DNA from: Nitrosopumilus sp.
GTDB lineage: Archaea; Thermoproteota; Nitrososphaeria; Nitrososphaerales; Nitrosopumilaceae
Reading direction: 5' to 3'
Assembly: GCA_965205425.1 (NCBI GenBank)
Contig: CBDBGZ010000009.1
Coordinates: 352,001 to 416,000, forward strand
Length of the DNA stretch: 64,000 nucleotides
The notes beneath the pieces are model-generated. The model saw only the letters and a list, made by a program, of their open reading frames with translations. It made no database searches and was not told the origin of the DNA. Of this stretch, positions 2,941 to 7,112 are shown piece by piece. A program made the translations under genes and the position numbers. How positions within the stretch are numbered: the first letter of the stretch is position 1; each line of letters starts with the position of its first letter.

Positions 2941-3013
2941 AACCTATTTCATAACCTGTCATAATAATAACCTATCTCTTGACCTAATGTATAAATAACC
3001 TAAATGATAACCT
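2939..3013. promoter_or_regulatory. Divergent promoter with phased ATAACCT repeats (putative operator)
   Basis: ATAACCT at 2939, 2951, 2967, 2995, 3007 and TTGACCT at 2979; spacings 12,16,12,16,12. Confidence 0.7.
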
Positions 3014-4143
3014 ATTCTATGAATCAAAGAGAAATTAGAGGAAAACAAATAGCAGAAAAACAAAATCAAATTATCAAAATAGATGAAACTCATTACAAAG
3101 TAAATTCTCAAAGTAGAAACAAACAACATGACGTTATCTCTTTAGAATCTGGTTGGAGTTGTAGTTGTGAGGATAGATTTTTCAGGAAAACTTGTTGTAA
3201 GCACATTCATGCAGTAGAAATTTCATTAAATATTCATCAAAAGGTAAAAGATGATGTTATAATTTCAGAAGTGGAAATTGATTGTTGTAAATACTGTAAA
3301 TCACAAAATATTGTAAAACGTGGCATACGAAAAAACAAGAGTGGCAATATCCAAGTGTTTAGTTGTAAGAACTGCACACGTAAGTTCTCAATTAACTTAG
3401 GCTTTGAGGGAATGAGAGCAACACCTGATCAAATCACAATGGCAATGAATCTATACTTTAACGGTGAATCATCAAGGAAGGTAAAACAATCCTTGGTTCT
3501 TACTGGTGTTAAAATATCTCATGTTACCATTCAAAACTGGATAAAGAAATACGTCTCACTAATGGAAAAATACCTTTACAAGATAACTCCACAAGTAGGT
3601 GAGCAATGGAGAACAGACGAATTATATCTAAAAATCAAGGGTGATAAAAAATACCTCTTTGCAATGCTAGATTCAGAGACTAGATTTTGGCTGTCTCAAA
3701 TGGTATCAGAACATAAGGGAAATGATGATGTATCTCCAATGTTTGCAGATGCCAAAAAGAAAGCAAAGAAAGTTCCAACTACACTAATTTCTGATGGAGC
3801 TGCAAACTTTCATCATGCTTGGAAAGAACAATACAAAGCCAAAAACTTTCTACATAAAAATACAGAACATCACAGGCACATACACCTATCAGGCGATATG
3901 AACAACAACCAGATGGAATCCTTTAACTCAAACACTCTAAGAGCAAGAGAGAAGGTCGTTAGAGGAATCAAAAAAGATGATTCCTCGATAATCAAGGGTA
4001 TGCAAATTCATCATAATTTCATAAGACCACATCAAGGGTTGAATGGAGATACACCAGCAGACAGATCAGGCATTATTATACAAGGAGATAATAAATGGAA
4101 AACCATAATTCAAAATGCTAGTAACGCCACGAGAGGGATTTGA
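3004..4143 (+). CDS. IS6-family DDE transposase with N-terminal SWIM and Zn-ribbon domains (likely start ATG 3019)
   Basis: SWIM CSC...CKH; CxxC...CxxC; HTH (ISHVTIQNWI); WRTDELY, ISDG, NNQMESFN catalytic triad; HNFIRPH C-terminus. Confidence 0.88.
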   Translation: MITYSMNQREIRGKQIAEKQNQIIKIDETHYKVNSQSRNKQHDVISLESGWSCSCEDRFFRKTCCKHIHAVEISLNIHQKVKDDVIISEVEIDCCKYCKSQNIVKRGIRKNKSGNIQVFSCKNCTRKFSINLGFEGMRATPDQITMAMNLYFNGESSRKVKQSLVLTGVKISHVTIQNWIKKYVSLMEKYLYKITPQVGEQWRTDELYLKIKGDKKYLFAMLDSETRFWLSQMVSEHKGNDDVSPMFADAKKKAKKVPTTLISDGAANFHHAWKEQYKAKNFLHKNTEHHRHIHLSGDMNNNQMESFNSNTLRAREKVVRGIKKDDSSIIKGMQIHHNFIRPHQGLNGDTPADRSGIIIQGDNKWKTIIQNASNATRGI

Positions 4144-4209
4144 ACCCACGTACCCGCAGGGCAGAAGTTTAGGAAACTCCCTGAATTGACCAGACTATCA
4201 GATCGTGAC
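4125..4209 (-). tRNA. Atypical type II (long variable arm) tRNA or tRNA-like gene, anticodon CCT
   Basis: Acceptor GTCACGA/TCGTGGC with G73; D-loop AGTCTGGTCAA; anticodon arm GGAGT-TTCCTAA-ACTTC; variable stem TGCCC-TGC-GGGTA; T arm GTGGG-TTCAAAT-CCCTC with one mismatch. Confidence 0.75.
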
Positions 4210-4396
4210 ATTAGTTAAAATTTTGAAAAGAATAAAAATCCACCTTATCGCCCTGCGGGAGTGATAAGGCTTCATCTTTAGTCTTAATTGTGATTGCAAA
4301 TCACAGGCAAAGACAGAAACCACAAGGCTTGTAATTATAATACTTTAAACATCTAAATAAATAATTTTGGATCTTAGCATCAGTAGGCATGATTAA

Positions 4397-4463
4397 TTTC
4401 TAAAAGCCTCGACACTTACCAGCAATAAGATTTGTAGCTATGCCCCGCTAACTTACCAGTTCC
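4397..4463 (-). repeat. Right terminal inverted repeat (67 bp)
   Basis: Exact reverse complement of 1406-1472, followed by CTTTTTTT. Confidence 0.97.
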
Positions 4464-4490
4464 CTTTTTTTAATGTTACAGTTTTTGAGG

Positions 4491-5093
4491 CTAGAAATGA
4501 TTCTCAAAGAATACTTCATCCAAAGATAACTGACCACCACGTTCAGCAGCATCTGCAGATCTCTTTCCAACTACAACCATCATTACAATCATGTGGTCTT
4601 TTGGCAGATTAATTATATCAGCTAGTTCATCATATTCAAAACCAACCATAGGACAAGAATCAAGACCCATCTGACTAGCTGTTAACATGATTGTTTGAGC
4701 TGCAAATCCACAAGAGCGCATTGCCTCATCTCGTCTATTCTCAGGGCTGTTTTCATATTTTCGGGCAAGAGAGTTTTTCACTAGTTCTTGTTTTTCAGGA
4801 GTATTATTTCTCCAGTATCGTAATGGTTCTTCTTTCCATGCATTAAGATTTCCACATAGTACTACAACTAGAGAGCCGTCTTTTGGTTGGGCTTGATCAC
4901 GGGCGGCTTTGGATATTTTATCTTTTACATCTTGATCAGTAACATAGACAAATCTCCAATTTTGTTGATTATAGCTAGTTGGAGATAGTATGGTTAACTC
5001 TTTTAGTAATTTAATATCTTCAGGTGGCATTTTGTATGATGAATCAAATTTCTTTATTGCACGTCTAGTTTTGATAGCATCAAAGGTATCCAT
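4491..5093 (-). CDS. Nitroreductase family protein
   Basis: RRAIKKF, SPTSYNQQNWRF, GLDSCPMVGF motifs. Confidence 0.9.
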   Translation of the reverse strand: MDTFDAIKTRRAIKKFDSSYKMPPEDIKLLKELTILSPTSYNQQNWRFVYVTDQDVKDKISKAARDQAQPKDGSLVVVLCGNLNAWKEEPLRYWRNNTPEKQELVKNSLARKYENSPENRRDEAMRSCGFAAQTIMLTASQMGLDSCPMVGFEYDELADIINLPKDHMIVMMVVVGKRSADAAERGGQLSLDEVFFENHF

Positions 5094-5127
5094 GAAATAA
5101 CAAAAAAATCCCCAAATTTAATTGAAT

Positions 5128-5271
5128 GAAAAGGTAACTGAGCTTAAGATCAGCACTAAGAGTGCTGATGACAGCTCACCACTTAAGATCAGTAACTGAA
5201 AAGTTATCTGATGACAGCAATTTATCTTAAGGTCTGAAACGATTGTACTCAGACGAAAGACTCACCTTTTC
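5128..5271. ncRNA. Candidate structured ncRNA with three repeated hairpins
   Basis: Closing stem GAAAAGGT/ACCTTTTC encloses three hairpins of form CT-TAAG-stem-loop-stem-GA(C/A)-AG; the third has compensatory base changes. Confidence 0.6.
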
Positions 5272-5397
5272 TGAATTAGTTATGTGATTTTCTTATTTAA
5301 CGGGTACTACTTTTTCCTACTAATGGAAATCAACACTAGCCACTAGTGTAGTTTCCAGATAGTGTATTTATTAGGCCAAAAGGGATCGCAGAATATC

Positions 5398-6411
5398 TTG
5401 AAGATTGCAGTAATGGGAATGGGAGTAGCAGGATCATATCTTATGGCCAGACTAAAAAACTCTGAGCACGAAGTTACTGGATATGAGAGAATGAAGGAAG
5501 AAAATCATGATTCTATTTGTGCATGGGGGACAATCAAACCAATTCTAACAGATTTTTGTAAAAAGACTGGAAGAGATTTTGATGATTTTCTAATTCACGA
5601 CGGTAAGGAAATGCATGTGAAAATGAATGACGATGTGAAATTTGATATCGGACTCAAAGGATTATGCACATATGACAAACTAGCACTAATCAAGGATTTC
5701 ATTAAAGATTCTAAAATTATTTACGGCAATCCACCATCAATAGAGGAATTAGAAAAAGAGTACGACATGATAGTTGATTGTACTGGATTTCACAGAGTTT
5801 ATCTCCCAAAATTAGAAGAAGATTTCTTTTTGCCAACATACGAGTACAAAGTAGAATATGAAGACAAGGTTCCATATGATGACTTTTACATTGAACCATT
5901 TCCTGGCATGTCAGGCTATTTCTGGTATTTCCCATTAGGTGAGAAATGGGCACATATCGGAGCGGGTGATTACAATAAACAACACATCAAGGCAACTGAT
6001 GATTTTCTAAAAAAACATGGAGGTAAAATCCTGAAAACTAAAGGTAGACCAATTAGATTAGCAACACCTGATAGATGCAAACCATACTATTCAGGAAAAG
6101 TAGTAGGTGTTGGAGAATCAATTGGAACAGTATACGCATTGTTAGGTGAAGGAATCATTCCATCAATGCAATGTGTAGAGATTTTCTTAGAAAACATGAA
6201 TGATTTCAAAGCATATGAGAAAGCAGTAGAGAAACACTACAAGGTTTATGCTAAAGTGTTTAATTTTGTTCGAGCAAAAATCCACAAAGATTTCAGCTTC
6301 TTCAAAGCATTGCCAGATTTCATTGCAATATTTCTTTACATGAAAAAACATGAAGACAGATTTGGAATGAATATCAAGATTGCAGATTTGATGAAAGTTG
6401 CAAAAGCTTAA
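5398..6411 (+). CDS. FAD-dependent oxidoreductase, geranylgeranyl reductase-like
   Basis: GMGVAG Rossmann motif, GYFWYFP, VGESIG...GEGI; TTG start inferred. Confidence 0.8.
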   Translation: MKIAVMGMGVAGSYLMARLKNSEHEVTGYERMKEENHDSICAWGTIKPILTDFCKKTGRDFDDFLIHDGKEMHVKMNDDVKFDIGLKGLCTYDKLALIKDFIKDSKIIYGNPPSIEELEKEYDMIVDCTGFHRVYLPKLEEDFFLPTYEYKVEYEDKVPYDDFYIEPFPGMSGYFWYFPLGEKWAHIGAGDYNKQHIKATDDFLKKHGGKILKTKGRPIRLATPDRCKPYYSGKVVGVGESIGTVYALLGEGIIPSMQCVEIFLENMNDFKAYEKAVEKHYKVYAKVFNFVRAKIHKDFSFFKALPDFIAIFLYMKKHEDRFGMNIKIADLMKVAKA

Positions 6412-7112
6412 CTAAAACTTACAGAACCAAAACCTTCACGATTAGTTCTATTTGATGCCATGTTATAATCATAAATGGTAGTAGAATATGCTTTGAGTTC
6501 ATCTTTCATTTGGTCCAAGTTATCTGCAAGGTAAAATCCAGGACAATCACCCGTAAACTGATAGGTTGCATGTACTCTAGCCTTGCCTTTTTCATTTTCA
6601 AGCCAACTTGCAAATGGATAGAGATAGCAGACACCAGGTCTGTCAGGATGCATACTACAGGCTCCCGTATCATCTAAAAATCTACAAGAGATATGGGTTC
6701 CATCATCTGCTTCAGTTTCATCAGTTTTTCTTTTTAGATTAATTGTAGTCATTGTAGTCATTTGTCCTGATGGTCCGGGTTCCTGATATGTAACAGTTAG
6801 AGTTTCATTTTTAATAAAATCTGAAGGTTTTTTGTATTTCAAACCCTTTCCTATTGTAATCAAATCATCAGATGTCAATGGCAATCTACCTTGTCTATCG
6901 CAACAGTTGTGACAGTCAGGCCAAAAGCATTTCCACAGAATATATTTTTTTTCAGAATTCAAATAAGGAACATGAAATACTACATCCTTTACTTTAATTG
7001 GATAATCAGAAACATCAGTAACTTTTCCTAGCATAAATTTTCTTAAAATTGGATCAACGTCCCAATCCTTTTCTAACAAATCAAGTGACTCTTCAATCTC
7101 TTTTTGAGACAA
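6408..7112 (-). CDS. YkgJ-family cysteine-cluster protein
   Basis: C...CHNCC and CRFL....CSMH..RP.VC.LYPF motifs. Confidence 0.8.
   Translation of the reverse strand: MSQKEIEESLDLLEKDWDVDPILRKFMLGKVTDVSDYPIKVKDVVFHVPYLNSEKKYILWKCFWPDCHNCCDRQGRLPLTSDDLITIGKGLKYKKPSDFIKNETLTVTYQEPGPSGQMTTMTTINLKRKTDETEADDGTHISCRFLDDTGACSMHPDRPGVCYLYPFASWLENEKGKARVHATYQFTGDCPGFYLADNLDQMKDELKAYSTTIYDYNMASNRTNREGFGSVSFS

Follow-up and report, generated by a model that had tools for sequence, protein, structure and literature searches.

A most likely small-RNA gene of ammonia-oxidising archaea, conserved and built from three copies of a 42-nt hairpin module

The ammonia-oxidising archaea rank among the most numerous microbes of the sea and, to our knowledge, almost no regulatory or structural small RNAs have been reported from them. 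In bacteria, the CsrB/RsmZ sRNAs are stand-alone RNAs that repeat one structured motif, with GGA in hairpin loops, in variable copy number and under a distinct conserved promoter. A sponge of this kind normally implies target mRNAs with the same site. Archaeal box C/D sRNAs are characterized by an RUGAUGA C box, a CUGA D box, guides of about 12 nt and the G-A pairs of a K-turn, while in H/ACA sRNAs a pseudouridylation pocket is found together with a K-turn or K-loop, and each hairpin is followed 3' by an ACA box. Among viral RNAs, HIV TAR displays a pyrimidine-rich asymmetric loop about six pairs below a conserved apical loop. Finally, internal loops of the UAA/GAN type set 5'-UAA-3' against 5'-GAN-3' in a 3+3 loop with standard closing pairs. 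This motif was reportedly introduced by Lee, Gutell and Russell in 2006. Its signature is given as ccUAAg/uGAagg in PMC2615604 and PMC12550061.

The element presented here lies in a window of 64,000 nt, the whole stretch of DNA that was analysed. Its host is an ammonia-oxidising archaeon because the genome encodes archaeal AmoA (386 bits). Positions 5128-5271 are most likely a conserved small-RNA gene of ammonia-oxidising archaea that belongs to no described RNA family, and the RNA itself is most likely minus-sense. That the element is a structured sRNA gene of the minus strand is, from sequence comparison, very probable. Two covariance models are used throughout: R1, built from the 11 sequences found by BLAST (own included), and R2, built from the single module. 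The features of the locus, in the order of the minus-sense RNA and followed by the neighbouring genes, are as follows.

5301..5326, minus strand: upstream promoter element, minus-sense CCATTAGTAGGAAAAAGTAGTACCCG, conserved and common to the class-1 single-module loci
5293-5300, minus strand: TATA box, minus-sense TTAAATAA (plus TTATTTAA), likely promoter of the RNA
5128..5271, minus strand: structured core, a four-way junction formed by the closing stem with the three hairpin modules (fold, alifold, covariance model, covariation)
5264..5271, minus strand: 5' strand of the closing stem, minus-sense GAAAAGGU (covariation of helix 1)
5222..5263, minus strand: module A, first on the RNA and hairpin 3 of the preliminary description (R2 44.8 bits)
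5178..5221, minus strand: module B, formerly hairpin 2, loop GUC/CUUA (R2 44.1 bits)
5139..5178, minus strand: module C, formerly hairpin 1, loop GUC/CUUA (R2 41.4 bits)
5128..5135, minus strand: 3' strand of the closing stem, minus-sense ACCUUUUC, where the T-rich end begins (sequence, alifold, covariation)
5102..5127, minus strand: T-rich tract with a T7 run at 5102-5108, likely terminator
4491-5093, minus strand: nitroreductase gene (PF00881), ATG at 5093, 35 nt downstream of the RNA
5362/5399-6411, plus strand: divergent GGR-like flavoprotein gene, TTG at 5399

The preliminary description had placed three hairpins and a closing stem in this interval, and all the strings that it quoted are present where it had put them. 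On the plus strand, the closing stem pairs GAAAAGGT (5128-5135) with ACCTTTTC (5264-5271). For the 161-nt stretch, minimum free energies of -49.0 kcal/mol (plus strand, z -4.5) and -53.6 kcal/mol (minus strand, z -5.5) were obtained, and none of 200 shuffles folded as well on either strand. One motif had been said to be displayed three times, and the loop letters are indeed common to the three hairpins. Module A differs in detail, with a 5' loop UUC in the window and the apical sequence UACAAUCGUUU, which is common to single-module loci. Other parts of the description held in the window only. The GAAA loop of hairpin 2 is replaced by GCATT, GCGTT, AGATT and others in relatives. Likewise, TGAAT flanks the element at 5123-5127 and 5272-5276 but is not conserved in relatives, so that no target duplication is marked by it.

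The whole element is present in one copy in the 2.2-Mb genome, the three other matches being of 14-19 nt only, as expected by chance. A DNA search (BLAST) of 151 genomes of the family, own included, gave long matches in 10 relatives (94-164 nt, 74-82% identity). With R1, full-length matches were found in 21 of the 151 genomes, again with the own one (55-159 bits), and the match in the window reached 149.8 bits at 5124-5275. Among weaker R1 matches, some RNAs had two of these hairpins and others a single one, and the number of modules per RNA is thus 1, 2 or 3. Among the 21 full-length homologues, double changes were observed in 31 of 43 pairs, all seven helices showed covariation, and 95.5% of cells were paired in an alignment that, being fitted to the model, leans towards structure; the same leaning applies to the paired percentages of alignments A5, A8 and A9, which were fitted to minus-strand models. 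The closing stem (helix 1) contributed 6 counted pairs, of which 3 showed double changes, with 90.5% of cells paired. None of 500 shuffles reached the observed values, and when partners were slid by 1-3 columns only 30-45% of cells paired. A model-free alignment of the 11 sequences already held 13 pairs with double changes. The compensatory change from ATCAG/CTGAT to GTCTG/CAGAC, which had been read in the window between two hairpins, is real and is extended by the homologues, and the proposed selection on a single-stranded structure is supported. Modules at the same position across genomes share 70-73% identity and those at different positions within one RNA 61-63%, which indicates that the triplication is older than these genera.

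The strand was assigned from three kinds of evidence. In the stems of the 11 BLAST-found homologues, a strand-neutral sample, 44 G-U and 7 A-C cells were counted on the minus strand (some G-U in 21 pairs, some A-C in 6 pairs), and the plus reading swaps the two. The same trend was observed in two sets that come from minus-strand models, namely the 21 full-length RNAs (72 G-U against 13 A-C) and 84 distinct modules (57 against 5). In parallel, RNAalifold gave -34.3 kcal/mol with 43 pairs for the minus strand and -17.3 with 32 pairs for the plus strand. A usable plus-strand promoter was not found at the proper distance upstream of the element. Only 5 nt separate the conserved AAATTTAATT at 5114-5123 from the stem, and the nitroreductase ATG follows about 25 nt after it, so that this sequence fits as the TATA box of that gene. 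Since the G-U/A-C counts, the alifold energies and the conserved promoter agree, the minus strand is favoured. This reverses the earlier view that structure favours the plus strand, and it confirms another remark of the same source, in which a TATA-like box near 5294-5301 was taken to favour minus: the box at 5293-5300 is invariant in homologues. The UAAG/GAM internal loop that had been described is present in letters on the plus strand but is the complement of the loop on the likely RNA strand, where 5'-NUC-3' faces 5'-CUUA-3'.

On the minus strand, the TATA box precedes the closing stem by about 25 nt. Both TATTTAAC and GATATTTAAC at this box are invariant in the 11 homologues, the window version of the latter being TTATTTAA. 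The box and its upstream element were observed on the minus 5' side in 21 of 21 full-length loci, even where the neighbours had changed. A similar arrangement was found at a first class of single-module loci (class 1), in which ACGTAGAAATnATCAGTAnGATCTAAATACT stands upstream, a TATA box lies 20-30 nt before the hairpin and a T run mostly comes soon after it, so that the unit is short. The element upstream of the three-module RNA, cACTAGTAGaAAtnaTnAGTAnnnGGTTAAATATC, matches the class-1 element in letters and in distance to the TATA box, and the class-1 loci carry it in the same orientation before the hairpin. The pattern GTAGNAA-N4-6-AGT-N5-8-TAAAT has two matches only in the genome, the window promoter at 5295-5320 (minus) and the class-1 locus, while the reversed control pattern has 2+2; as the pattern was derived from these two loci, all that follows is its absence from the rest of the genome. 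Because the promoter element is common to both, the three-module RNA and the class-1 loci are inferred to be commonly regulated. In some class-1 promoters (e.g. L058, L069, L110, L123) the upstream element is doubled or carries an inverted repeat ATGAATCGTTCAT...AGAAATCATCAGT, which looks like an operator for a dimeric regulator.

At the other end, the T-rich tract 5102..5127 overlaps the nitroreductase TATA box 5114-5123, and relatives show CCTTTTTATT at the end of the closing stem. For single-module loci, a run of at least five T occurs within 60 nt downstream in 17 of 26 cases, and a run of at least five A upstream in 6 of 26.

The 42-nt module is composed of an outer stem (5-6 pairs, the last one U-A), the internal loop NUC/CUUA and an inner stem that opens with R-Y. 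In 84 distinct modules gathered without a pairing filter, U8, C9, U39, U40 and A41 are fixed in all 84 and C38 in 83; U6 and A42 are fixed in 83, the pair 6-42 is Watson-Crick in all 84, and position 7 is G in 76. The near-invariant letters around the loop thus read 5'-U[NUC]R...Y[CUUA]A-3'. In the 21 full-length RNAs, GUC or NUC was found at 62 of 63 module positions (1 gapped) and CUUA at 60 of 63. The apical sequence UACnAnCGUU is conserved in single-module loci and in module A. For the module alone, a set of 52 units (A6) showed double changes in 11 of 12 pairs; 96.2% of cells pair, a percentage biased by the filter that defined the set (4/4 inner and at least 4/5 outer pairs, G-U allowed), and slid controls gave 24-41.5%. 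The CUUAAG palindrome was also considered as a dimerisation site and rejected, since covariation with the 5' strand was observed for its last G (CG 42, UA 8, AU 1, UG 1, n=52).

The preliminary description had noticed the repetition within the window, where three modules stand, but had missed that the module is dispersed over other loci. R2 detected five modules in the own genome, three in the window and the following two elsewhere.

G000:C9:219450-219492, minus strand: second module locus, L088 (R2 match)
G000:C9:651775-651817, minus strand: class-1 module locus, L089 (R2 match)

In the family sample, R2 matched 68 of 151 genomes, each of them 1-12 times. These genomes belong to 14 of 27 genera, and within most genera either nearly every genome matched or none did. 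When a sample of the class was searched, matches were obtained in 54 of 80 family genomes and in none of the 70 genomes searched from 11 sister families. The sampled genomes include the unpublished G077, G092 and G093, on which no claim rests. Viral contigs were searched as well: of 11 pattern loci, 10 scored 21-24 bits with R2 and one gave no score, against 37-57 bits for genomic modules, and these loci were attributed to chance.

Besides class 1, another class of single-module loci is syntenic in several genera and convergent with an ORF of about 127 aa, and in other genera a single module is accompanied by a different second hairpin. In genus g22 (L055, L059, L066, L067, L072, L077, L119), the GC-rich hairpin CGGTTCAGRCCCCGAGGGGAAACTCAAGTCTGAACC and then a T run follow the module; an internal AAACTCAAG there resembles the 3' strand of the module outer stem, which hints at an alternative pairing. 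At L088 (G000:C9:217950-220992), the hairpin (1501-1543, minus) overlaps the 3' end of a convergent 136-aa ORF (1115-1525, plus), for which its opposite strand encodes ...ELKSKND and takes the stop codon from the conserved apical loop. Homologues of this ORF adjoin the module in genera g3, g4 and g23, the module being 7-10 nt from the ORF end in g4 and g3. The L088-type ORF of about 127 aa, the one neighbour that recurs at a module locus, shows a weak RNase H-like Pfam match (RVT_3, E 0.024), in a search whose alignment also contained three unrelated ORFs from one genus. It was rejected as an exclusive partner, being present in 21 of 27 genera and thus more widespread than the module (14 of 27). 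At L089 (G000:C9:650275-653317), the hairpin (1501-1543, minus) lies 49 nt upstream of a 127-aa ORF without a Pfam family, which is followed by a 354-aa ORF of ABC1/UbiB kinase type by eye; this is the only case seen in which the module might occupy an mRNA-leader position. In genus g4 (G030, G073; L073, L108-L118), some class-1 copies have longer homology upstream and downstream and reach into the 3' end of a convergent 63-aa ORF, which is AbrB-like by eye, with no Pfam match. G030 and G073 carry 10-12 modules, so that the unit may be spreading there within a larger repeat.

The element can also be lost. The syntenic site was inspected in four congeners with few or no modules (L124-L127). G218 holds a decayed three-module copy with broken hairpins and a mutated TATA box, G232 a short remnant, and G110 and G236 an unrelated GC-richer sequence, with no module anywhere in their genomes. 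Genomic copies and empty sites had been proposed as a check on mobility, and the outcome is a single whole copy and two genomes lacking the element at the syntenic site. Because congeners show a decayed, remnant or absent element, the module system is dispensable.

The element was found to match no described RNA family. A covariance search of Rfam 15 with both strands of 4000-6500 and E values up to 10 returned 13 matches, all below threshold; the best one overlapping the element was snR61, at 18.8 bits for a gathering score of 45. The preliminary description had recognised no family, and nothing near threshold contradicts it. The RNA is not described in the portions of the literature that were covered, which included PMC5069720, PMC13475601 and 2026 bioRxiv preprints. 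Archaeal box C/D and H/ACA sRNAs are likewise small, with a conserved protein-binding element, and H/ACA RNAs likewise have one, two or three hairpins. However, the minus-sense RNA is devoid of K-turn G-A pairs, of a 12-nt guide spacing, of a pseudouridylation pocket and of an ACA box. Box C/D membership was rejected, as CUGAUGA and CUGA are found on the plus strand only, with spacers of 19-24 nt, and the strand evidence is for minus; H/ACA membership was rejected, as the loop is only 3+4 nt, without G-A tandem pairs and with no ACA after the hairpins (A3, A6). Readings of the minus loop as a BHB splicing motif, T-loop, UA_handle or K-turn were discarded by eye against the usual definitions, the letters not fitting. 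HIV TAR offers an analogy of shape only, since it likewise has a pyrimidine-rich asymmetric loop about six pairs below a conserved apical loop, but there is no sequence relation to the module.

The likeness to CsrB/RsmZ is of another kind. The RNA is likewise stand-alone, with one structured motif repeated in variable copy number and a distinct conserved promoter; three modules with the same loop letters stand on one RNA, and extra modules are mostly in short RNA-like units, not in mRNA leaders. In contrast to the bacterial GGA hairpin loops, the archaeal RNA presents an asymmetric pyrimidine internal loop, and membership is not claimed. Neither a cognate protein nor a clear set of motif-bearing mRNA targets, as in CsrB/RsmZ, was found here.

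The best guess is that the three-module RNA acts as a multivalent protein-binding scaffold or sponge. Transcription would proceed from the TATA box (5293-5300) and reach the T-rich tract that follows 5128. A protein-binding site would be made up of the asymmetric pyrimidine loop, its invariant closing pair and the apical loop, each 42-nt module would bind one copy of a protein, and the three-module RNA would hold or titrate up to three copies, single-module RNAs carrying one. The protein-handle reading is suggested because the loop letters are fixed while the stems are free and the closing pair is invariant, because a conserved apical loop stands about six pairs above, and because modules occur in 1-3 copies and in several unrelated flanking frames of RNA. 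It further draws on the promoter element common to two classes, on the lineage-specific presence and on the clean losses. Some observations weigh against it. The partner protein was not found by a neighbourhood search of module loci, we know of no protein-binding motif that the module loop matches, and only one of the two extra modules of the own genome is just upstream of an ORF (49 nt), although a sponge would lead one to expect targets with the same site. The plus-strand letters UAA(G)/GAN, which come near the known UAA/GAN loop, were also counted against this explanation. That the module is a handle for a lineage-specific protein is thus plausible but tentative, and the gene together with its mechanism, a minus-strand sRNA gene of three protein-binding handle modules, is put forward with the same reserve.

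A first alternative, unlikely but the strongest of those considered, is that the module works as RNA only, as an ion or metabolite aptamer or as a small self-cleaving or catalytic motif, with the three-module RNA being a tandem array. Around ten fixed loop nucleotides with freely covarying stems, together with 1-12 copies per genome and tandem occurrence, would suit this, as fixed loops and variable copy number or tandem occurrence are typical of small ribozymes and some tandem aptamers. On the contrary, no Rfam ribozyme or riboswitch model matches, a single 42-nt hairpin whose loop is 3+4 falls below the size of any self-cleaving class known to us, and in the absence of a consistent downstream gene a riboswitch would have nothing to control.

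Base pairing is the less probable second alternative, in which the loop letters or the variable tails would pair with targets and some copies would work in cis, as antisense RNAs to convergent genes. The overlap of the L088 module with the 3' end of its convergent ORF, the distance of 7-10 nt in g4 and g3 and some g4 class-1 copies overlapping the convergent 63-aa ORF all speak for it. However, the three-module RNA overlaps no gene, the fixed letters are confined to short loops of 3 and 4 nt, and class-1 RNA tails are not conserved.

A role in cis was raised by the preliminary description, which offered regulation of the flanking flavoenzyme genes as an option. The element would then be a 5' leader or riboswitch acting on the nitroreductase gene, located 35 nt downstream on the strand of the RNA, or on the flavoprotein gene in divergent orientation. 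All 11 BLAST-found sequences do lie between these two genes, with the nitroreductase gene downstream on the same strand. Yet TATA-like boxes at 5114-5123 and 5365-5373 precede the nitroreductase and flavoprotein start codons by about 25-30 nt and are conserved, the flavoprotein box CAGATAGTGTATTTATTAGG being almost invariant in 11 genomes; because of this spacing both mRNAs would be leaderless, and the nitroreductase gene has a TATA box of its own. In one congener the RNA and the flavoprotein gene (89% identity) are kept and another gene replaces the nitroreductase gene alongside the RNA. Moreover, full-length RNAs stand amid unrelated genes in four other genera (AhpC, methyltransferase and Usp included), Usp/DUF6659 or PAC2/VWA adjoin the RNA in other genera, and neighbours of the full-length or two-module RNA differ in 5 of 7 genus-level contexts examined. 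Single-module relatives adjoin transporter, aEF-2/TFB, citrate synthase and other genes, and Pfam scans revealed no recurring function among the neighbours of 20-odd module loci. Because its own promoter is kept while neighbours change between genera, the RNA is regarded as a stand-alone gene and no leader; the leader reading is largely refuted already by the varying context and is very improbable. As a further observation on the neighbourhood, an IS-type transposase is encoded 1 kb away from the RNA gene, at 3004-4143 (plus), by an ORF of 379 aa that carries DDE_Tnp_IS240 and rve domains and is outside the neighbourhood conserved in relatives.

Just as improbable is a plus-sense RNA with three UAA/GAN-type loops or with box C/D-like CUGAUGA...CUGA elements. 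Taken as its complement, the module loop becomes UAA(G)/GAN, and N coincides with the variable letter: every module gives cuUAAG.../...uGAnag on the plus strand, near the ccUAAg/uGAagg reported in PMC2615604, and the letters are present in 84 of 84 modules. CUGAUGA, for its part, occurs twice on this strand. Against this, the likeness falls on the strand that is opposed by the counts (44 A-C mismatches for 7 G-U in the plus stems of the 11 unbiased homologues), by a halved alifold energy and by the promoter, none being found for plus at a usable upstream distance. In addition, an extra purine makes the loop 4+3 instead of 3+3, and box C/D models of Rfam reached 12.7-19.8 bits for gathering scores of 37-103. 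The UAA/GAN assignment was therefore rejected, and the likeness on the plus strand, though striking, may be a coincidence. It illustrates that a wrong-strand reading of a motif can yield a convincing look-alike of a known RNA motif.

Least probable of all is an element acting as DNA, either the MITE/REP-like repeat once proposed or hairpins that are recognised in single-stranded DNA. In its favour, copies of the 42-nt unit are scattered (5 here, up to 12 in relatives), some g4 copies lie inside longer repeated segments and a DDE transposase gene is 1 kb away. However, the whole element is single-copy with no conserved direct repeat, TGAAT being missing from the flanks of relatives, and the locus is syntenic and orthologous across genera (same-position modules at 70-73% against 61-63% within an RNA). 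Copies also have a TATA box upstream and, at most single-module loci, a T run downstream, all in one orientation, and the conserved neighbourhood does not include the transposase gene.

Several RNAs share a hairpin module, and the covariation-backed structure at 5128-5271 is one of them. The module has fixed loop letters, a promoter element common to two locus classes and a sharp phylogenetic boundary. The module could be used as bait for its partner, and the natural losses in close relatives offer comparison strains. More tentatively still than the handle itself, part of one family of ammonia-oxidising archaea may possess its own small RNP system, in which a 42-nt handle with a new type of pyrimidine internal loop would be carried by sRNAs, a dedicated operator-bearing promoter would switch these sRNAs on, a three-handle RNA would gather or titrate three copies of the protein, and the whole could be lost.
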